This document shows positions 45,870-55,714 of a stretch of DNA of 64,000 bases, in pieces. The notes below the pieces were generated by a model. That model made no database searches, was not told the DNA's origin, and saw only the letters and a list, made by a program, of their open reading frames with translations. The stretch's first letter is position 1, and every line of letters begins with the position of its first letter. The DNA is taken from the NCBI RefSeq assembly GCF_011045215.1, contig NZ_CP049201.1, one strand, 5' to 3'. Source of the stretch: Escherichia coli (GTDB lineage: Bacteria > Pseudomonadota > Gammaproteobacteria > Enterobacterales > Enterobacteriaceae). The translations under genes were made by a program, and so were the position numbers.

Positions 45870-48392
45870 TTATGCCGGTAACTCCGGGGGTAATGCTTCT
45901 TCCAGCCGGTTAACCATATTGCCGAGATGGGATGCATCATATTCCATGACGGGGCGTTGCCTGATGATACTGACCACCAGTGGTTTGATTAACATATTGG
46001 TCGCGGCCCGTTGTTGTATACCGGCGGCGAAAATGATCTCCAGAGCATTCTGATCGATAACACGGGCCAGATTCGCGTTCAGATTTTCTGTTTCATGTCC
46101 GGTCAGCAGGAAACTGCCGGCAAGCCATGTCACCTGTTCCTGAATCATTGCCAGAATTTTGACGCGATCTTCTTCAACCAGCGCTCCGGCAATTTTTCCT
46201 GATACAGCGGAGGCAATCATTCCCCCCAGAACACCGCCAACCACACGCCCTGTCAGTGCACCAAATGGTCCCAGTGGACTGAACAGTATCCCGCCCGCCA
46301 CTGACCCGACAGCTCCACCTGCCACACCGGAAGATGCCACGGCAAGATTCCTGATGAACTGCGTACCGGAGATCCGTCCCCGCAACATTTTGATCATGTC
46401 AGGGCCGGTTGTGACAGCTACCAGTGCCAGAGATGTCACCAGCGTACCCTTCATCACTTTGTTCAGGGCACTGATATTTCCTGCACCGGTCCCCTTCTGA
46501 AGAGCCAGTCGGACAGTCGGGCTGGCAGTCGAAAAATCAATGTGCTTCAGCATACCCTGAACAACACTGAGCCGGTGGAGTTGCTGGGTTGTGACGTAGA
46601 CAGCCAGTGTGCGGGTGAAGGTTTTTCCTGCCTGGACAGCAGCTGTCTGCAGAGCAGCATCGCGATCGCCGGTGCTGAGCCAGAAGACCGATGCCGTCAG
46701 GGCAAAACTGATCCCTCCGGCCGCCAGACTGACAACCGAACCCTCGGCAATATCATAAGTGACCGATTCGATGGTCCCGAACCGGGTGATATTACGGGCC
46801 TGAGTATAAGTCAGATGTCCCCGACGAATCAGCCGGGACGCTTCTGCGGGATCGATTACACCGGGTACTTTACCTTCGCGGATCTTATTCCTCATGGTTT
46901 CAACAGCGCCGGCATACTGATCACGGGGGACTTCCAGTTGCATGGGGCCATTATTTCCCATGTAACGATACTGTCCGTTTTGTCCGTCGAATGCCGCACC
47001 GACGCTACGGGCTGCAGTTGAACAATATTTCGTCTGGATTTCTGTTCCGCTGACCAGTCTGTCTGCTCCATTTCTGGCATTATTATCACCGAGGATCCGT
47101 GCGTTTTTCAGACGGATTCTGTCGACAATATGGTTTCCCCGTTCAGCGGCAAACCCATGTCCCTGCCCTCCGGAAGCAAACATTTTCTCATTTGTACTCC
47201 AGGTTTCCGGCAGTTTCATGAGAATCAGACCATTCGCCGTTGCATCGGAAATAAAACTGTTGTAGGGGCGTTCATAAATTTCCTGACACAGTGTTTCTGT
47301 TTCGCGACAAAGAGAGGAGCAGTACCATTCCGGATCCGGCTTATGATTTTCCGGGGCATGATGTACTTCTGTCAGCCCGCAGGAGGCACAGACACGAAGC
47401 TCATCCACGTGATGGAATGATACAAAACGGCGACCTTCTGAAAAGGGATACCAGTCACCGCCGTCCAGGCAACGATCGAGAAAATCGTCATTCGCTTCCG
47501 GTGATAAATTCAGGCGGTTCCGGAAGAGTGTTTTCAGTTCATCAGGTGTGAATGACAGGTTCTCTTTCAACTGTTCGTTAAACCCTGCCATGTTTCTTTC
47601 ATACCAGGCATTGTTCAGTAACCAGTTTCCGTCTGCCAGTTCAAATTCCCTCAGCTCTCCCCGGGAAATCCGTTGAGAAATAAGCGTCAGCCAGATGCGC
47701 TCCGTCAGTGAGTCAGGAAGGCTGTAATCGTTTTGCAAACTGGTCAGCCACGATTTACTGTTGAGCACCGGTTGTTCTTCCAGTGTCTGGCTGATGGCAC
47801 AGGTCAGTTTTTTCAGCGCCTGGATTTGGCTGGCCGCCCATAGCAGCGTCACTAATGCAGCCAGCCAGTACAACAACCCGCCCCACCACATCAGTGACGG
47901 TGAAATATCGTACTGTAACGCGATCAATGGTGCGCATGCAGAACAAGCCATAAGGAAAAAGGCAGTATAAAAACAGCAGTAATATCCGTTAATTTCCTTG
48001 CTGATATCTTCTGGTGTGATCCCGTTCTGCTGAATGTTTTTGATCTGCAGGGGAACAGCCAGCAGACCACCGGCGAGAGCGGTGGTCAGAATAAATTTCA
48101 CGGAGTCAAAGGTGTGAGACTCCAGCGCAATATGTTTACCATCAAGTCCCCACATGAAGCTGATGATCATTCCGGCAATCGTCAGAAATACGCCTGCCAG
48201 CCAGCGAATATGGAACAACCGGGTTATGCGTTCGGTGATATAGCCAGCCAGTAAGGCCGGGCCGAACAGACACAGCAATATGAGCCCTGCCAGCGCAGAA
48301 GCCGTGCTGATTAATGCTCTGAACAAAAGGCGAAGAATGGCAAATCCTGCGATCAGCAGGATCAGCGCGCCGACTATCTGTAACATAGTCAC
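45870..48392 (-). CDS. yeeR: YeeR-like large inner membrane protein
   Basis: 840-aa ORF with multiple TM segments at both ends; located between the Ag43 gene and the DUF932/antirestriction genes as in CP4-44-type elements. Confidence 0.7.
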   Translation of the reverse strand: MTMLQIVGALILLIAGFAILRLLFRALISTASALAGLILLCLFGPALLAGYITERITRLFHIRWLAGVFLTIAGMIISFMWGLDGKHIALESHTFDSVKFILTTALAGGLLAVPLQIKNIQQNGITPEDISKEINGYYCCFYTAFFLMACSACAPLIALQYDISPSLMWWGGLLYWLAALVTLLWAASQIQALKKLTCAISQTLEEQPVLNSKSWLTSLQNDYSLPDSLTERIWLTLISQRISRGELREFELADGNWLLNNAWYERNMAGFNEQLKENLSFTPDELKTLFRNRLNLSPEANDDFLDRCLDGGDWYPFSEGRRFVSFHHVDELRVCASCGLTEVHHAPENHKPDPEWYCSSLCRETETLCQEIYERPYNSFISDATANGLILMKLPETWSTNEKMFASGGQGHGFAAERGNHIVDRIRLKNARILGDNNARNGADRLVSGTEIQTKYCSTAARSVGAAFDGQNGQYRYMGNNGPMQLEVPRDQYAGAVETMRNKIREGKVPGVIDPAEASRLIRRGHLTYTQARNITRFGTIESVTYDIAEGSVVSLAAGGISFALTASVFWLSTGDRDAALQTAAVQAGKTFTRTLAVYVTTQQLHRLSVVQGMLKHIDFSTASPTVRLALQKGTGAGNISALNKVMKGTLVTSLALVAVTTGPDMIKMLRGRISGTQFIRNLAVASSGVAGGAVGSVAGGILFSPLGPFGALTGRVVGGVLGGMIASAVSGKIAGALVEEDRVKILAMIQEQVTWLAGSFLLTGHETENLNANLARVIDQNALEIIFAAGIQQRAATNMLIKPLVVSIIRQRPVMEYDASHLGNMVNRLEEALPPELPA

Positions 48393-48506: not shown

Positions 48507-51356
48507 TCAGAAGGTCACATTCAGCGTGGCCTGACCGTTATAGCCTTCGGCGCTGTTGCCGCTGACACTGTGGGCATAACCGGCCTGAACGCCCAGGGTG
48601 ATATTTTCCCGGACACGGGCTTCCAGTCCGGCCTGCAGGTCCAGTGACGTGCCATTCCGGGACGGTGAAAACGTCATGTTACTGCCGGCGGCGGCTGTAC
48701 CCATGCTCATGTCACCCCGGGAGCTGAAAGTGCGGATAACAGAAGGCTGTACCCACCAGTTCACCGGCAGTTCACTCACACGGTGTTTTGCACTGTCGCG
48801 CAGAGTGTCACGGGATGAGGTGCCTTCGCCAAAAGTCATATCGTTGTGGCTGCCCAGACGGAAGCCGGCACGCACATGTTGTGCACTGCCATGCCCGAAC
48901 TTCACATAACCGGCGTTATCCTGGCCGTCATCCAGGGAGAGCCCCTGCCAGGTGTACTGCAGTTGTGGCTCCAGCATCAGGTTGTCAGTGATACTGAAGG
49001 GCAGACCGGTTTCCAGTGAGCCCAGCCAGCCCCAGCCCCGGGCGCGGAAGTCGTTATTGTCCGATGACGCTTTCATGCTGTGGCGGGTTCCCTGGGCCAC
49101 AATGTCAGCCCACAGGCCGGAGGACGTGTGTACCAGATTCAGGTATCCGCCCAGGCTGCCGGCATCATCCCGGACCGTGCCGGCACGGGAGCCGTCATCA
49201 TCCTTAACATCAACGGAAGAATGGCCAGCAGCACCATACACTCCTGTCGTCAGTGACATACCGGCAACCTCTGTTCTCAGCAGGTCACCCTCCAGACGGA
49301 CGAGGCCATAGCTGCCGCTGCTTTCCGGCGTGGCCCCACGGGCAATACCACCGTTGTTATCGTGCCCGAGATGACCGCCCTGAATGCTGAGACGGACGCT
49401 GTTATTTTCACCGCTTACACCGGTCTGATGGCTGCGGGAACCTGCCAGAATCCGGTCATAGTCCATTGCCTGTGTCAGCATGGAGGCATACAGGGGGACT
49501 TCAGCACGATAAGCATTTTCACTGCGCAGGTACCAGTCTTCATCGCTGTCACGGTTCAGGGTGTAGTTAAAGGCGCCGGCCTGAAGCGGGCGACTCAGGG
49601 CAAACGCACCTTCTTCTGTGGTAGCACCATTCTGTGCATCCACAACCCGGATACCCTGTCCGGAGGTTGCCACCCCGAGGTTACTGTTTCCGACATTTGT
49701 AAACGCAAGCCAGGTTTTGCCGGTTGCCTGACCACCATTAATCACCAGCTGGTCAGAGGCATTACTGCCATCAAGGCTGACACGCATATTGATGGTGCCG
49801 CCCTGGCCGGTGAGGTTCGTGGTGGTTAGTTTATGGAACGTTACCGGGGAGTTACTTTTTGCAACAGCACGGCTCAGCGCGGCATCCGGTGTCGTCTGAT
49901 TATCAAAGTGAATCTCTCCTGCGTTAATAATATCGCCGGTACTGACCACATCACCATTCAGTACCATACTGGCGCCTTTACTGAGCTGTGTTCTGCCACT
50001 CAGACTTCCCCCGGCAGCCAGCGTCAGTGTTCCACGATGTCCGACAGTGGTGTTGCTGGCCAGTCCTCCGGCATTAACCGTAAAGCTGCCGCCATTTTCC
50101 AGCAGCAGGCCGCTGGCCTGACCGGATATGCCATCAATACTGAACTTACCGCTGGCATTGGTCCCCTCAACAGTGGCACCACTGTCTGCAATCAGGGCAC
50201 CACCGGATGTCATGGTGACATCTGTTGCCTTACCACCGGCAGACACTGCCAGGGTACCGCCGTCATCCACCAGTGTTTTCCAGGCTGAATGGCCCTCCAG
50301 TACATCCAGGCGACCGCCGGACTCCAGAACAACGCCGTCAGCCTTACCGTTTTCCACTGTGAAATTCCCCAGGCGGTTTGTGCCGGTGACAGTTGCAGCA
50401 GTACTGGTAACCAGTGCACCGCCCGTGTTCTGGGTGACTGCAGTGGCTTCCCCGCCGGCATGTACCCTCAGTTCACCGTTCTGATTTATGGTGGTGTTAC
50501 CGGCAGCGCCACCGGCCTTAACAACCTGCCAGCCCCCCTCGTTAATTACCGTGTTCAGCGCCAGTCCGTCCTTGTGCACATACTGGTAACCGCCATTCAG
50601 TGTGGTATTCAGGGCCCTTCCGTGTACCGACTGGTCACCACCTGCGTAAATGAGAGTGTCACGGGCTATCCCGGAAGATAAGATAATCTGCCGTCCATTT
50701 TTGTTGATGGTGGTGGATTCTGCTGTTCCCTGGACCTTCTGACCCGTGTACGAGTTGTCAGAATCCGGGCCGCCTTCTGCGCCGGTGTTGATGATGGTTC
50801 CTGTTGCCAGCCCGCCACTTTTAACGCTCTGGTAACCGTCGCGGTTGATAATTGTACCGGTGGCAACCCCGCCCTCATGAACCCACTGCTCGCCTCTGTT
50901 ATTCAGCGTGGTGTTCACCGCCAGCCCGTTCAGGCTCTGTCCCCCGCCGTCACGAATAACCGTATCACTGGCTGTTCCCCCCTCCAGCACGACCTGACGA
51001 CCATTTGTGGTGACAGTGGTGTTTCCGGCTATCCCGCCATTCTGTATCCATTGCCCACCGGTGTTTTCTTCACTGTCCGGCCCCAGTTCCAGCCCGGTAC
51101 TGATGGTCATTCCGTTGGCCGTACCGAGGACAATCTGGTTGTCATGATTTGTCAGTGTTCCGCCGCTCATGGTTTCTCCCGCCTGTACAACCGTGTCAGC
51201 AGCCAGTGCCGGGACTGACGTGACAGCAGCAAGAGACAGCGCAACCGCCACACCGGTGCGTTTTCCCCGTGAGCGGGCCAGTTCGGAGGCCACCACCAGG
51301 GTGCCCGTAATGTGATTCCATACCAGCCTGTAGCTGGTGTTCAGATGTCGTTTCAT
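48507..51356 (-). CDS. flu: Antigen 43-type self-associating autotransporter adhesin
   Basis: ORF 48507..51431; real start at the internal MKRHLNTSYRLVWNHITGTLVVASELARSRGKR (extended autotransporter signal peptide); passenger repeats; C-terminal beta-barrel ending ...GYNGQATLNVTF. Confidence 0.9.
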   Translation of the reverse strand: MKRHLNTSYRLVWNHITGTLVVASELARSRGKRTGVAVALSLAAVTSVPALAADTVVQAGETMSGGTLTNHDNQIVLGTANGMTISTGLELGPDSEENTGGQWIQNGGIAGNTTVTTNGRQVVLEGGTASDTVIRDGGGQSLNGLAVNTTLNNRGEQWVHEGGVATGTIINRDGYQSVKSGGLATGTIINTGAEGGPDSDNSYTGQKVQGTAESTTINKNGRQIILSSGIARDTLIYAGGDQSVHGRALNTTLNGGYQYVHKDGLALNTVINEGGWQVVKAGGAAGNTTINQNGELRVHAGGEATAVTQNTGGALVTSTAATVTGTNRLGNFTVENGKADGVVLESGGRLDVLEGHSAWKTLVDDGGTLAVSAGGKATDVTMTSGGALIADSGATVEGTNASGKFSIDGISGQASGLLLENGGSFTVNAGGLASNTTVGHRGTLTLAAGGSLSGRTQLSKGASMVLNGDVVSTGDIINAGEIHFDNQTTPDAALSRAVAKSNSPVTFHKLTTTNLTGQGGTINMRVSLDGSNASDQLVINGGQATGKTWLAFTNVGNSNLGVATSGQGIRVVDAQNGATTEEGAFALSRPLQAGAFNYTLNRDSDEDWYLRSENAYRAEVPLYASMLTQAMDYDRILAGSRSHQTGVSGENNSVRLSIQGGHLGHDNNGGIARGATPESSGSYGLVRLEGDLLRTEVAGMSLTTGVYGAAGHSSVDVKDDDGSRAGTVRDDAGSLGGYLNLVHTSSGLWADIVAQGTRHSMKASSDNNDFRARGWGWLGSLETGLPFSITDNLMLEPQLQYTWQGLSLDDGQDNAGYVKFGHGSAQHVRAGFRLGSHNDMTFGEGTSSRDTLRDSAKHRVSELPVNWWVQPSVIRTFSSRGDMSMGTAAAGSNMTFSPSRNGTSLDLQAGLEARVRENITLGVQAGYAHSVSGNSAEGYNGQATLNVTF

Positions 51357-51573
51357 CAGCTTTTCCTTACAGAGGGTGAATAAAAAAGCCGGTACCCACA
51401 AATGTGGATACCGGCAGGTACAAAACAGCATGGTCAGATAAAGTGGTTTTTCCCGGACATAAATGCTTCCCCTCTCTCATCCGCCAGAGAAGTATCAGTC
51501 CGTTGTGTGCAATTCCGTTCTGCATGATGAAGAGATTCAGCTGCCTTTTCGCAGGCCATTAACCACTACAAAC

Positions 51574-51609
51574 GATCGATACTAACGATCGATACCTGTT
51601 TTATCGATC
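51574..51609. promoter_or_regulatory. Ag43 phase-variation switch: three closely spaced GATC sites in the putative OxyR operator (approximate)
   Basis: aaacGATCgatactaacGATCgatacctgttttatcGATCgtttt lies ~220-250 bp upstream of the flu start codon. Confidence 0.75.
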
Positions 51610-51727
51610 GTTTTATTCTATTGATAGCAGGGCAGTCACGCAAGAGAAACAGGAGGGTATGAGGGGTTTGTATCATGTTTTCAGTTGGTTAACGCAATGT
51701 AATCAGGCATTTCCCCTGGCAGAGTGT

Positions 51728-52600
51728 TCAGAAGAAAATCCAGTTCCATACCGCACGGGCAACAGAGACCACCGTGTCACGAACAGCGCGCAGGGCCGTA
51801 CGGACAACAGAGGCAACACAGACGCTCTCCGCTGTGTCAAATATCCGGTCCACCGCACCGGTAAACTGTTCACGGGCCTGAGAGCGGACAGATTCCGTGC
51901 GCAGCTCGTCCTGCAGTCGGGTCATCAGGGGACTGGCGGCATGGTCGGGAAGCGCTGTCATGAGCGCACTGACCAGCGTATCCAGTTCCCAGCCGGTGCG
52001 GGCCGATACGGCCACAACCGGATGTGCGGGCCGGAACAGACGGAATACCGCCTCCGTTTTTTCGCGAATGTTCCGTGCCTGTGCGGGAGAGGGCTGAATG
52101 CCGGCCATATCCCATTCATGGCAGGGCTCCGTTTTGTCGGCCTGCGTCACCACAAACAGCACCTGCTGATGTCCCCGGTGCAGGATGTGTCGCCAGAAAT
52201 ACTCATCCACAGACAGGGCACGGTCATCGGCTTTAATCAGCCACAGTACCAGGTCAAGTTCAGGCAGAATGTCACGGTACAGGGCTTCATACTCTGCATC
52301 CCTGTCCCGGCTCTCGCCCACCCCGGGCAGGTCAGTGATAACCATGCTGTGACCGTGGCCACTCAGACGGAAGCGCTGCACTTCCCGGGTGCCGGCGTGA
52401 ACATCACTGACCGGGGTGACCTCCCCCTGAAACAGTGCATTACAGAGTGAGGATTTACCGGCCCCGCTTTTACCCATAATGCCAATCACGGGTTCGTGAC
52501 TGGTGAGTTTGCGCAGATGTTCCAGGATGTGACGGGAAAGTGAGTAAGGCAGGGAGGAGAGCGGTTTTTCAATTGCCTCAATGGCATCAGACGGATTCAT
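51728..52600 (-). CDS. yeeP: YeeP/YkfA/YfjP-family GTPase
   Basis: ORF 51728..52639; P-loop GKSGAGKSS and DLPG G-motifs; probable start MNPSDAIEAIEKPLS. Confidence 0.8.
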   Translation of the reverse strand: MNPSDAIEAIEKPLSSLPYSLSRHILEHLRKLTSHEPVIGIMGKSGAGKSSLCNALFQGEVTPVSDVHAGTREVQRFRLSGHGHSMVITDLPGVGESRDRDAEYEALYRDILPELDLVLWLIKADDRALSVDEYFWRHILHRGHQQVLFVVTQADKTEPCHEWDMAGIQPSPAQARNIREKTEAVFRLFRPAHPVVAVSARTGWELDTLVSALMTALPDHAASPLMTRLQDELRTESVRSQAREQFTGAVDRIFDTAESVCVASVVRTALRAVRDTVVSVARAVWNWIFF

Positions 52601-52930
52601 ACATGTATTCCCGGTGAAAAAAGACAAAACCCCGCGCACCGGAAAGGTGGCGGGGGATTCACGGAGATAATATCTGCCTGAAATTATTTAGGATGCAGGT
52701 ATCTTCAGATAATCATACCTCCAGAATTTTGTTCTTAATAGTTGAGTAGTGGTATTTGGTTTCCCTGAGAGAATATAAAGGTGAATCATACTGTATTGAG
52801 TTTGATTCTATTTGTACTGAGACAGGTATCTTCATGATTATAATCAAAAGTCGGGTGGATTGGTCTGGCGCTCATTATTTTTTCGAATAAACTCACTAAT
52901 TATTGTAACCATCCCAGAGGAGATGATTTT

Positions 52931-53113
52931 ATGTATAATTGTGGTGAATCATATTCAGAATACGACATATCATTATCTGACGATGAAAACTATAACGATG
53001 ACTATTATCGTGAACGCCCGTGCCCGGGAGAAGTTTTCGGCTATGATAATACTGAGGATAATGATGAGGCGGCATCTGATTATGCACTAAAAATAAATGA
53101 AAACTCTGATTAA
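52931..53113 (+). CDS. Hypothetical small, highly acidic protein (60 aa)
   Basis: ORF MYNCGESYSEYDISLSDDENYNDDYYRERPCPGEVFGYDNTEDNDEAASDYALKINENSD preceded by a GAGGAG Shine-Dalgarno about 8 nt upstream; AT-rich context. Confidence 0.35.
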   Translation: MYNCGESYSEYDISLSDDENYNDDYYRERPCPGEVFGYDNTEDNDEAASDYALKINENSD

Positions 53114-53251
53114 TACGAGGTGGCTGATAATAAGACAATCAATGACAAATATTAATGAATAAACATAATCAGGCGCTCAATACTTGATTTAATCTGGGCG
53201 CCTGATTAAAATCTGAGGTAACATATAATAATTTTCATCAAAATAGTATTT

Positions 53252-54276
53252 ATGTGTGTGATTCATAGACATCGTTTCAATTTTCTCAGCTCAAGTTCAA
53301 GCTTGTAATTCTGTTCCTGAATATGCTCCTTATTGGGCTGATAGCTTGCGTGAACGGCATCCGAGTATGGCGTTTTCTCAGCAAGTTCAAAGTAGCGCTC
53401 CATCGGCGTTTTACCGTTGTGAGCGCAATGAGGACGTTCCCAGTTATAGTAATGCTGCCATTCTGCCAGTCGCTCCTCCAAGTTATCAGTAGCGATATCT
53501 ACGGTAGCGTAAAACTCAGCTTTGTCTGTCTTTTGGGAGCGTTCAACTTTGCCATTAAGATGGGGTGATGCTGGTTTATTTGGACGAAACTTGATGCCGT
53601 ATTCTTTCAGTCTTTCCTGCACCTTAACGGCAAAAAACTCTCTTCCCCGGTCTGTCTGAAAGCGCTGAATCGGGAACGGCATTTCTTCAATAAAACAATC
53701 AATGAAATCCAGTGTGTTTGTAGTCGTGCGACGGGAATAGAGCCTCAGAACTCTGTAGCGAGTGCAATCATCAACAGATGTGTACTGATATAAGCCGGGG
53801 CCAATTTTACAGGTATCCATCTGAACCCAATCACCGGGAACAGGGCGTTCGTAGCGAATGAAATCAGCTTTACGCCGGAGTTTAACAACAGGTTTAACCT
53901 GATTCTGGCAAAGAACTTTGTGGATTGTTGCCATTGCAAGTGAGATTGAATGAAGTCGTTTTAACTCGCTTTGAATCCGTCTTGCACCCAGATTTCGCTG
54001 GGAACGTAACTCCAGAATCAGAGCGACTTCGCAAGTGCCGGTTTTCGTTGATGGCGAACGCTTAGGGCGACGGCTGTGGCTTTCCAGACCAGCGATGCCC
54101 TGAGCCAGATATCTGCGCCACCATTTACGCAATGTGGGGCGGGAAATACCGCAGCGACGGCATACGAACCCCGCGTCACCAGACGTTTCATAGAGTTTTA
54201 CCCACTGTAGCCGCTGCTGAATTTCCCTGTTCATAGTAAGGCATTATAGTGAAACGATGTCTATGAATCACACAAG
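53252..54276 (-). mobile_element. Compact ~1.0 kb insertion sequence with one DDE transposase gene and ~24-bp perfect terminal inverted repeats (tentatively IS481-like)
   Basis: Terminal repeats TGTGTGATTCATAGACATCGTTTC and its reverse complement flank the transposase ORF; family assignment is tentative. Confidence 0.75.
53263..54234 (-). CDS. DDE (rve-type) transposase
   Basis: 323-aa ORF with N-terminal HTH (CGISRPTLRKWWRRY) and an integrase-core-like central region. Confidence 0.85.
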   Translation of the reverse strand: MNREIQQRLQWVKLYETSGDAGFVCRRCGISRPTLRKWWRRYLAQGIAGLESHSRRPKRSPSTKTGTCEVALILELRSQRNLGARRIQSELKRLHSISLAMATIHKVLCQNQVKPVVKLRRKADFIRYERPVPGDWVQMDTCKIGPGLYQYTSVDDCTRYRVLRLYSRRTTTNTLDFIDCFIEEMPFPIQRFQTDRGREFFAVKVQERLKEYGIKFRPNKPASPHLNGKVERSQKTDKAEFYATVDIATDNLEERLAEWQHYYNWERPHCAHNGKTPMERYFELAEKTPYSDAVHASYQPNKEHIQEQNYKLELELRKLKRCL

Positions 54277-54425
54277 TAAAGAACCTTGCAGAGGCGTTCG
54301 AGCATTATAACGAATGGCATCCGCATAGTGCGCTGGGTTATCGCTCGCCACGGGAATATCTACGACAGCGGACCTGTAATGGGTTAAGTGATAACAGATG
54401 TCTGGAAATATAGGGGCAAATCCAG
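54277..54425 (-). mobile_element. IS2 right-end remnant (3' end of the IS2 transposase reading frame plus terminal repeat), truncated by the adjacent IS
   Basis: Encodes ...[39 protein letters not shown] and ends ...TGGAAATATAGGGGCAAATCCA, recognised as the IS2 terminus. Confidence 0.6.
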
Positions 54426-54598
54426 CGTAATACCAACCATATAATCTCTAGGAGGAGTATTTTTACAATAGTAAGAACTATCATACATCCCCCTACAGAT
54501 TCAGAGAAGAAAAAGAATTAATTATCGTCAAAACTTTCGACAAATCACATCATTAACATGATAACAACTAACAAAGGACAAGCTAATGAAAGATGTGA

Positions 54599-55714
54599 TT
54601 ACTGCATCAATACGGTAGCTATCGCACTGCCAGAAAACGATCCAGCATCAATTCTGTTTGTATCTATAACCCTATATTGTGACGTTATATCAAATGTTCT
54701 ACTTCCACTGATAACCCCCGAAAATTCCTTCGCACCATCAACAGTCAATGTGCACTTTCCATTATCTCCACATCGAGTTACATTCCCCCCTTCCCCTGAT
54801 ATTAGATTACTACCTTTAATGGTTATATCTACTCTGGTTGGTGAACTGCAATTAATCACTAATCCGGCCTTAGCAAAGTGTCCATCACGAGCCTGGGCTG
54901 ATGTTATTGCATTATGATTTATTGATATATCTTTATTCCCTGCTATATTACAGGATGCCAGAACATTCACTCTTACAGGGGCATATCTGTTCTCCATATT
55001 AACTACTGCAGACTCAACACCCCCACCATCAGAACAATATTTTTCCCCCTTATACCATTCCTCAGATCCTATTTTTAGCGGAATGTTTAAATCATATATT
55101 CCGGCTAAAGCACTGCCCCTCTCTATCGTTACCCTCAATTTGGTACTCTGAAAGTTGTTATATACCAGAGGATATCTGTATCCCGGGACAATTTCTCCTT
55201 CTGGGAATGGTCTGTCATACCAATCATAGTTATCATAAACACCAACGTAAGTCTGATAACCATTATAAATACCACGTTTATTATACCCCCCGGAAATAAT
55301 CTGAATACTCCCTTTCAGACCATTACCCAATCGTATGTTATTACTATCAACTGGCATCGCAATCCATGTTGCCTGACTCTTTGAGCCTTTACCCGAAAGA
55401 ATCTTAACCGGCGAGCTAACAGGCACATTATGACGCTGGACCCAGCTAACAACTGCAGACGTTCTTGGTGCCAGACCGGGCAATACAATATCAAAATAAC
55501 TTGCTGTGTTTCCTGAGGAAATTGTTACATCCGGAATAGTAACATTGTTACCATCTAACTGCCACAATATTTGCATATCACGACAAGGTTCATATGCAAA
55601 TGAACAACCTGATATAAAAACAAAAAGATAAATTATTTTCTCACACCACATACCTTTCACACCTTGTATATCCCCAGACCAGAAAATCCCTGAGCGCATA
55701 AATAACCCTCTCAC
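54599..55714 (-). CDS. Putative secreted lipoprotein, beta-rich, unknown function
   Basis: 371-aa ORF; likely start at internal MWCEKIIYLFVFISGCSF (lipobox ISGC; start ~55651); Gly/Ser/Asn/Tyr-rich; AT-rich codon usage unlike the core genes. Confidence 0.6.
   Translation of the reverse strand: MRGLFMRSGIFWSGDIQGVKGMWCEKIIYLFVFISGCSFAYEPCRDMQILWQLDGNNVTIPDVTISSGNTASYFDIVLPGLAPRTSAVVSWVQRHNVPVSSPVKILSGKGSKSQATWIAMPVDSNNIRLGNGLKGSIQIISGGYNKRGIYNGYQTYVGVYDNYDWYDRPFPEGEIVPGYRYPLVYNNFQSTKLRVTIERGSALAGIYDLNIPLKIGSEEWYKGEKYCSDGGGVESAVVNMENRYAPVRVNVLASCNIAGNKDISINHNAITSAQARDGHFAKAGLVINCSSPTRVDITIKGSNLISGEGGNVTRCGDNGKCTLTVDGAKEFSGVISGSRTFDITSQYRVIDTNRIDAGSFSGSAIATVLMQ

Follow-up and report, generated by a model that had tools for sequence, protein, structure and literature searches.

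A small, strongly acidic open reading frame in Escherichia coli where the backbone of a CP4-44-type island meets its cargo

Small acidic proteins that mimic DNA, among them Ocr (gp0.3) and gp5.9 of phage T7, ArdA and p56 of phage phi29, are folded dimers with a DNA-like pattern of charge, and the DNA mimics known so far are usually folded. The product of the open reading frame (ORF) described here, which lies in a stretch of 64,000 nucleotides of E. coli contig NZ_CP049201.1 (hereafter the window), resembles these proteins in its small size, a pI of about 4, a high density of Asp and Glu and carriage on a mobile element. It differs from them in having neither sequence or profile similarity to them nor a predicted fold, and no phage or conjugative plasmid was found to carry the ORF. 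A second comparison is offered by the orphan small genes of EHEC (PMC4765031, PMC5597208), which the ORF resembles in being short, restricted to E. coli, free of homologues and borne on AT-rich DNA of horizontal origin, and in its modest transcription (here that of Z1209/Z1649, assigned to the ORF by synteny); unlike the novel genes of those studies, it had already been annotated. Acidic type II antitoxins are likewise small, acidic and partly disordered, but the ORF has no co-oriented toxin gene in an operon, its product has no DNA-binding domain and it is apparently monocistronic. The 3′ side of the ORF consists of a hairpin and then IS66, IS3 or IS481 sequence, and its upstream neighbour is divergent.

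The closest described entries are those for the gene itself. The ORF corresponds to ECs_1394 (NP_309421.1) in island SpLE1 of O157:H7 strain Sakai, where it has been a CDS since the 2001 genome; its product is identical to WP_000282126.1, the protein of strain C5, and differs from the Sakai allele by one residue (N22D), while the other accessions are 1–4 residues off the window protein. The RefSeq entries WP_000282124.1, WP_000282125.1, WP_000282126.1, WP_000282123.1 and WP_000283011.1 are all named "hypothetical protein". These loci occupy the same place, between a YfjP/YeeP-like GTPase gene and an IS66 remnant near Cah/Ag43, and the window locus differs from them in that an IS481-family element is inserted approximately 140 bp past the stop codon. 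Public annotation already lists the ORF as a hypothetical protein, so that it is not a new feature and the existence of the gene is not news; the sections below are concerned with whether it is a functional gene and what its product might do.

The acidic ORF and its island setting

The host of the ORF is a tRNA-Ile-integrated CP4-44-type E. coli island, for which the annotation was taken from the near-identical strain C5. The locus is made up of the following features.

51728..52600, minus strand: YeeP/YfjP-like GTPase gene, with which the island backbone begins, divergent from the ORF
52703..53254, no strand assigned: AT-rich block of approximately 550 bp that moves as one unit, at the cargo-proximal edge of the island
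52931..53113, plus strand: acidic-protein ORF, with an ATG start and 60 codons plus TAA
53255..54274, minus strand: IS481-family insertion sequence, the right bound of the block, with a perfect 20-bp terminal inverted repeat TGTGTGATTCATAGACATCG

The start codons of the ORF and the GTPase gene (yeeP may once have been annotated as a "putative histone") are 330 nt apart. From the GTPase gene the backbone continues on the minus strand toward the tRNA with IS102/IsrC RNA, Ag43/Cah, a large hypothetical protein and IrmA, followed by genes for DUF932, an antirestriction protein, a JAB/RadC-like protein, DUF987, CbeA/CbtA and DUF4942. The AT-rich block is thus flanked by conserved backbone on the GTPase side and by IS debris on the other. 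Alignment with islands that do not have the ORF placed the junction between backbone and cargo at approximately position 52702, so that the ORF and its upstream region of about 230 nt form the first piece of cargo. Other strains carry a truncated IS66 remnant or an IS3 element in place of the IS481-family element, and beyond it their cargo is variable and includes CBASS, Ter, type I restriction-modification (R-M) and cadBA genes.

The first-pass annotation of the window had described a small, strongly acidic ORF in an AT-rich gap, and this description was accurate: the product has 60 amino acids and a pI of 4.05, and the 623-bp gap around the ORF has a GC content of 35% compared with 49% for the whole window. 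The product, MYNCGESYSEYDISLSDDENYNDDYYRERPCPGEVFGYDNTEDNDEAASDYALKINENSD, contains 10 D, 8 E, 8 Y and 7 N residues; D, E and Y together make up 43% of the protein, close to the share of about 40 percent given previously. With 18 D/E residues against three K and R residues, its net charge is approximately −15, and it therefore has the strong negative charge and pI below 5 that are a trait of DNA-mimic proteins.

An ORF of this kind could also be an accident: in young, hitch-hiking and AT-rich DNA a frame may simply lack stop codons without encoding any functional protein. Consistent with such an origin, when the gap was shuffled an ATG-initiated ORF of at least 60 aa arose in 14% of the sequences, and the length of the ORF on its own therefore proves nothing. 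Its charge, on the other hand, would not be expected from base composition: stop-free random ORFs of the same composition had a net charge of +3.6 ± 3.5, and the probability of a charge of −15 or lower was approximately 2e-6. Because composition-matched random ORFs are on average positively charged, the acidity of the product is not a by-product of AT-richness.

Reading-frame conservation, distribution and expression

Conservation of the frame in related islands, which had been put forward as a check on the ORF, was assessed in a sample drawn blind to the ORF itself: 39 loci were retrieved from metagenome contigs by exact match to a 21-mer of the 5′ flank, and complete genomes were added. The ORF was intact in 41 of the 45 sequences sampled in this way; the remaining four (approximately 9%) had lost 1 bp from the CCCGTGCCCGGG run (CCC/GGG) and were frameshifted. 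Fourteen of 24 substitutions in the ORF were synonymous, compared with 6.7 ± 1.9 expected by random placement (p=0.0005), a test that stands on these 24 substitutions alone because total divergence is low (3–5%); the corresponding pN/pS was approximately 0.16. The frame is thus conserved. The synonymous excess is specific to this frame and argues against an accidentally open one, although with substitutions placed at random no nonsense codon would have arisen in the frame in 54% of cases. Two overlapping ORFs were rejected as the coding frame, with only 4/24 substitutions being synonymous in each: a 76-aa ORF with a TTG start (52860-53090, plus strand) and a 69-aa antisense ORF (52929-53138, minus strand). 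A similar synonymous count was obtained for the antisense frame whose third codon positions coincide with those of the ORF, but this frame was riddled with stop codons and was likewise rejected.

Insertions and deletions were also distributed unevenly. The flanks (approximately 430 nt) contained at least 15 indel events, many at high frequency and including a length polymorphism of (AATG)n, whereas the 183-nt ORF contained two rare 1-bp deletions only. Database alleles with in-frame changes had gained five or ten codons of a DDENY repeat or lost five or two codons. The frameshift alleles themselves would be expected of an accidental ORF, and since they occur, in at least one case (locus L013) beside an intact GTPase gene, the ORF must be dispensable in some lineages.

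Initiation signals were conserved together with the frame.

52918..52923, plus strand: Shine-Dalgarno sequence, GAGGAG here and AAGGAG in most alleles, 7–8 nt before the ATG

The GAGGAG motif reported ahead of the start was found in the window 8 nt before the ATG. Either AAGGAG or GAGGAG was retained in all 47 loci compared (47/47), and the ATG start was invariant. In complete genomes a CDS was annotated by PGAP beneath the match in 60 of 60 evenly sampled matches, and also in 30 of 30 in a second set; gene callers favour a Shine-Dalgarno sequence with an ATG, and such calls could be made on an accidental frame as well, but conservation of both signals is not expected of one.

Of 5,426 complete genomes of E. 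coli, approximately 850 contained the AT-rich block, its upstream part being present in 850 and the ORF in 852. This is a share of approximately 16%, and the carriers include O157:H7, O145, O104:H4, O26 and O111 strains. A further 2,300 genomes, approximately, had in common with the window only the first 50–69 nt beside the GTPase gene. Each of the four main intact alleles was found in between 854 and more than 1,000 contigs, and in public data intact alleles far outnumber broken ones, which again speaks against an accidental frame.

Outside E. coli we found no counterpart. The acidic protein had no match in Pfam, NCBIfam, PADLOC or PDB sequences, and PHROGs gave only a non-significant match (E=0.29). 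Word-index and phmmer searches of 5.8 billion protein clusters returned E. coli variants only, many of them frameshifted singletons, and phmmer against 1.84 billion representatives added to the E. coli copies just two long low-complexity proteins, which we regard as spurious. A peptide-pattern scan of one genome per species across 100,044 species likewise identified no relative. The acidic protein is, as judged by these searches, an E. coli-restricted orphan without detectable relatives, and its status as an orphan without a predicted structure is a further point that would suit an accidental frame.

Transcription of the ORF can be assessed through published data for strain EDL933, in which the gene order is Z1208 (ISEc8 ORF), Z1209 (hypothetical), Z1210 and Z1211 (adhesin) (PMC4048457). 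Because this order matches that of Sakai ECs1393-1396, Z1209 in OI-43 and its twin Z1649 in OI-48 should be the ORF, an identification made by gene order only. Strand-specific RPKM values for Z1209/Z1649 range from 9 to 52 and are above background in most libraries (Tables S2–S4, PMC4048457). LB gave 9/20, nitrite 45/52 and spinach juice 37/40, and the values are 0 at pH 4, at 15 C and with antibiotics (PMC4048457). Z1210, by comparison, is listed in the table of silent genes (PMC4048457). If the synteny-based identity is accepted, transcription of Z1209/Z1649 above background while Z1210 is silent supports an independent, active promoter, and such strand-specific transcription is a further argument against an ORF open by chance. 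Our literature search found no mention of the peptide or of ECs1394, and the ORF was absent from the supplements (Ribo-seq, TSS or transcriptome data) of PMC5597208, PMC4765031, PMC5331693, PMC8524897 and PMC10469882, where we found neither ribosome-profiling nor proteomic evidence for it. Data for the presumed locus tags came from PMC4048457 only. Its absence from the Ribo-seq supplements of PMC5597208 and PMC4765031 could be taken in favour of an untranslated frame; the ORF is not among the novel genes of these two studies because it was already annotated.

The first-pass annotation had allowed that the ORF could equally have arisen by chance in AT-rich DNA. In view of the synonymous excess, the depletion of indels, the conserved Shine-Dalgarno sequence and ATG, the CDS annotation and the synteny-based transcription, a chance origin is now unlikely, and we conclude that the ORF is very probably a real gene under selection.

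Flanking signals and neighbouring genes

The region upstream of the ORF contains a candidate promoter and a short direct repeat, and a hairpin lies downstream.

52696..52707, plus strand: first copy of a 12-nt exact direct repeat, CAGGTATCTTCA, on the backbone/cargo junction
52817..52844, plus strand: candidate sigma-70 promoter with a −35 hexamer CTGAGA, a 16-nt spacer and a −10 hexamer TATAAT, matching the consensus at 10/12 positions
52823..52834, plus strand: second copy of the direct repeat CAGGTATCTTCA, inside the spacer of the candidate promoter
53166..53208, no strand assigned: hairpin or palindrome TAATCAGGCGCTCA-N15-TGGGCGCCTGATTA, with conserved pairing

Across 44 sequences the −10 hexamer of the candidate promoter was invariant and the −35 hexamer nearly so. 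Transcription from it would be expected to start near position 52851, giving a predicted 5′ UTR of approximately 80 nt, and the structure of this 5′ UTR was indistinguishable from that of shuffled sequences (z=+0.66). Over the 110 nt upstream of the ORF, conservation was equal to that of the ORF itself.

A hairpin with a 10-bp stem had been reported 3′ of the ORF; the hairpin is present, but its stem is longer than stated. The arms, at 53166-53179 and 53195-53208, pair over 14 bp, one of the pairs being G.U, and enclose a loop of 15 nt; the hairpin begins 53 nt past the stop codon. It lies in the 3′ region, where the block varies most. The hairpin nevertheless folds in all haplotypes other than two truncated ones (L017 and L037), and in the nine full-length haplotypes 96.8% of cells were paired and the outer 9 bp were invariant. 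One haplotype has a compensatory change from G-C to A-U, and with this one compensatory pair covariation was not significant, the observed score being reached in 77 of 500 shuffles. We rejected the hairpin as an intrinsic (Rho-independent) terminator: no U-tract follows it on the plus strand, where the tail is AAAAUCUGAGG, and a terminator consensus scan made no call; the tail on the minus strand, UGUUUAUUCAUU, is merely U-rich. It was also rejected as a repeated element, as it occurs once in the window with no second copy. The hairpin may instead be an inefficient end of the ORF transcript, a minus-strand terminator for cargo transcripts or a protein-binding palindrome. As this conserved hairpin comes after the ORF, the unit seems to be monocistronic.

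These signals could alternatively mean that the locus acts as RNA, with the ORF serving as the leader for a hairpin attenuator of a cargo gene since lost, or the transcript being a small RNA. The position of the conserved hairpin 53 nt past the stop, the conservation of the upstream 110 nt at the level of the ORF and the shortness of the transcript would all fit. Sixty codons are, however, long for a leader peptide, and neither a leader nor a small RNA would explain the difference in selection between synonymous and non-synonymous sites or the extreme amino-acid composition. Rfam returned no match in the gap (within 51000-55000 the only match was IS102/IsrC, elsewhere in that interval), and the ordinary structure of the 5′ UTR also argues against a cis-regulatory role. 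We regard an RNA function as highly improbable.

The constant proximity of the GTPase gene raises the further alternative that the acidic protein is a modulator or antitoxin-like partner, either of the divergent YeeP-like GTPase or of a downstream gene since destroyed by IS66. In all loci examined the ORF lies approximately 330 bp from the GTPase start in divergent orientation, and small acidic proteins are often antitoxins. The 3′ side of the ORF is always IS debris, and an original partner could therefore have been lost from it. The GTPase family, however, extends across Enterobacterales, and in E. coli most islands have the GTPase gene without the ORF, as do the approximately 2,300 genomes noted above. 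In Citrobacter and Yersinia islands we found no comparable small acidic ORF upstream of the GTPase gene, where the cargo instead comprises R-M, NERD-helicase, LysR and similar genes. The GTPase gene of L013 is intact beside a frameshifted ORF, and in EDL933 the two genes are in opposite states, Z1210 being silent and Z1209 expressed. The acidic protein also has no DNA-binding domain, and the conserved hairpin after the ORF argues for a monocistronic unit. A partner of either kind is on this evidence quite unlikely.

Predicted disorder and possible function of the acidic protein

AlphaFold2 gave no confident model of the protein. The pLDDT was 50 from the single sequence and 61 from a 16-sequence alignment, which was shallow and composed of near-identical sequences; pTM was 0.11–0.12 and no secondary structure was predicted. 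In a charge-hydropathy plot the mean hydropathy of 0.34 was well under the boundary of 0.50, placing the protein deep in the disordered region, and it contained no hydrophobic segment or signal peptide. The acidic protein is thus predicted to be a soluble, cytoplasmic and intrinsically disordered polyanion. Structure prediction had been suggested as a means of detecting a DNA-mimic-like distribution of charge; no such distribution emerged, as the models from the single sequence and the shallow alignment gave no confident fold and so no rigid DNA-like array of charges.

The role that we consider most likely for the acidic protein is that of a competitive, nucleic-acid-like decoy, neither an enzyme nor a DNA binder. 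It would bind stoichiometrically to the basic, nucleic-acid-binding surface of a partner protein and occupy it. Candidate partners would include a nucleoid protein, for example H-NS as a silencer of the AT-rich island, a restriction or other defence nuclease, or a protein encoded by the island. So acidic a protein could not bind DNA, and enzymatic activity would be improbable; a decoy is the simplest suggestion. Taken together, a selected small-protein gene at the island junction whose product is a disordered polyanion decoy for a basic partner has, in our estimation, an even chance of being the correct description; the decoy mode of action considered by itself, read from composition alone, is tentative and somewhat less than an even bet.

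A more specific alternative is that the protein is an anti-defence DNA mimic of the Ocr, ArdA or T7 gp5.9 type, a polyanion that blocks restriction or another DNA-targeting defence and so shields the island or incoming DNA. Its size and charge are within the range of known small mimics, an ArdB/KlcA-type "antirestriction protein" is encoded in the island backbone together with further genes of the sort seen in leading regions of plasmids, and in related islands the neighbouring cargo holds many defence systems (CBASS, type I R-M and Ter). Against this, the protein matched no known mimic or anti-defence family and had no homology in Pfam, NCBIfam, PHROGs or PDB, and without a confident fold (again from a shallow alignment) there is no B-DNA-like array of carboxylates. 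The distribution of the ORF does not favour such a role either: there was no copy in 50,697 phage records, a scan of viral contigs with the flanking 21-mer gave 0 matches, and in a plasmid collection only six records carried the ORF, all predicted to be non-mobilizable. The ORF is situated in a non-conjugative chromosomal island and points away from the backbone. An anti-defence mimic of the known type is consequently an unlikely explanation, and we would give a similarly low probability to a young, E. coli-restricted, disordered nucleic-acid mimic that serves the CP4-44-type island by disarming a defence nuclease or titrating a nucleoid silencer such as H-NS. Such a mimic would found a new family of DNA mimics or anti-defence proteins, one lacking structure and encoded where backbone and cargo meet.

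Should the proposed decoy prove to act on a defence enzyme or on H-NS-type silencers, a disordered class would be added to the DNA mimics, and the island junction would carry a counter-defence or counter-silencing function. Being widespread, under purifying selection and apparently expressed beside silent neighbours, and encoding a protein with a charge of −15 and predicted disorder, the ORF is a candidate for functional work, and it is a reasonable though unremarkable one for small-protein studies. We also noted that the acidic protein contains many acidic-aromatic D/E-Y motifs.

The backbone/cargo junction beside the GTPase gene

The conserved CP4-44-type backbone of the island begins with a YeeP/YfjP-like GTPase gene (51728-52600, minus strand), and the variable cargo starts beyond a junction at approximately 52702. 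Across Enterobacterales this GTPase gene heads a conserved module that also includes a WYL protein, YfjT/YfjS, DUF932 and an antirestriction protein. In the Citrobacter and Yersinia loci that we compared (L053-L059), the defence-like cargo immediately upstream of the GTPase gene differs, for example an HNH protein with a DNA methylase, or a giant NERD-helicase protein. Such variety makes the junction look like a general hotspot for cargo, occupied here by an AT-rich block of approximately 550 bp (52703-53254) that carries the gene for a 60-aa acidic orphan protein (52931-53113, plus strand). The following features lie at or near the junction:

52625-52660, minus strand: G+C-rich hairpin (CCCCGC...GCGGGG) directly upstream of where the GTPase gene starts (52600)
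52696-52707 and 52823-52834: exact 12-nt direct repeat CAGGTATCTTCA, two copies 127 nt apart

The hairpin, which is followed on the minus strand by UUUUGUCUUUUUU, is kept in approximately 3,160 E. coli genomes. It looks like either a terminator that would shield the backbone genes from transcription coming out of the cargo or a leader/attenuator for the backbone operon. The first copy of CAGGTATCTTCA sits on the junction itself and the second lies inside the spacer of the candidate promoter of the acidic ORF; most loci carrying the ORF block retain both. This repeat could either bind a regulator or mark a past recombination event.

Among the metagenome loci sampled through a 21-mer in the 5′ flank (L006-L044), 19 of 39 sequences stop approximately 190-400 nt upstream of that 21-mer, where the backbone begins or close to that point. 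These end points fit a backbone that is a multi-copy repeat in these genomes, in contrast to a single-copy ORF block.

Allelic variation in the acidic ORF

The acidic core of the ORF (52979-53008) contains two diverged 15-bp units encoding DDENY and NDDYY. Some alleles contain three or four DDENY units and others have lost one, always with the reading frame kept (proteins P0009, P0020 and P0024). All frameshift alleles break at the CGCCCGTGCCCGGGAG run (53014-53035), which is a mutational hotspot; in one O157:H7 SS17 allele (P0011) a compensating frameshift a few codons further on restores the C-terminal half. An (AATG)n microsatellite in the region 3′ of the ORF (approximately 53150-53160) also differs in length among strains, by +4, +16 and +20 nt (L005, L011 and L018).

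Insertion sequences and other features of the island

Further features of the window are as follows:

53255-54274: IS481-family element with perfect 20-bp terminal inverted repeats (TGTGTGATTCATAGACATCG)
51375-51611, minus strand: IS102/IsrC small RNA (full-length Rfam match, 74 bits, E=1e-11)
54599-55714, minus strand: 371-aa ORF
45870-48392, minus strand: 840-aa ORF

No obvious target-site duplication was found at the IS481-family element. On its right side lies a fragment of an IS3-type integrase, where other strains have an IS66 remnant, which suggests IS-mediated deletion or rearrangement beside the element. The IS102/IsrC small RNA is placed between the Ag43 and GTPase genes, the same arrangement as in CP4-44 of K-12. 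Neither the 371-aa nor the 840-aa ORF had a Pfam match; a PapB/FocB-type regulator adjoins the former in the near-identical E. coli strain C5, and a 'dynamin family protein' is annotated at the position of the latter in some related islands.
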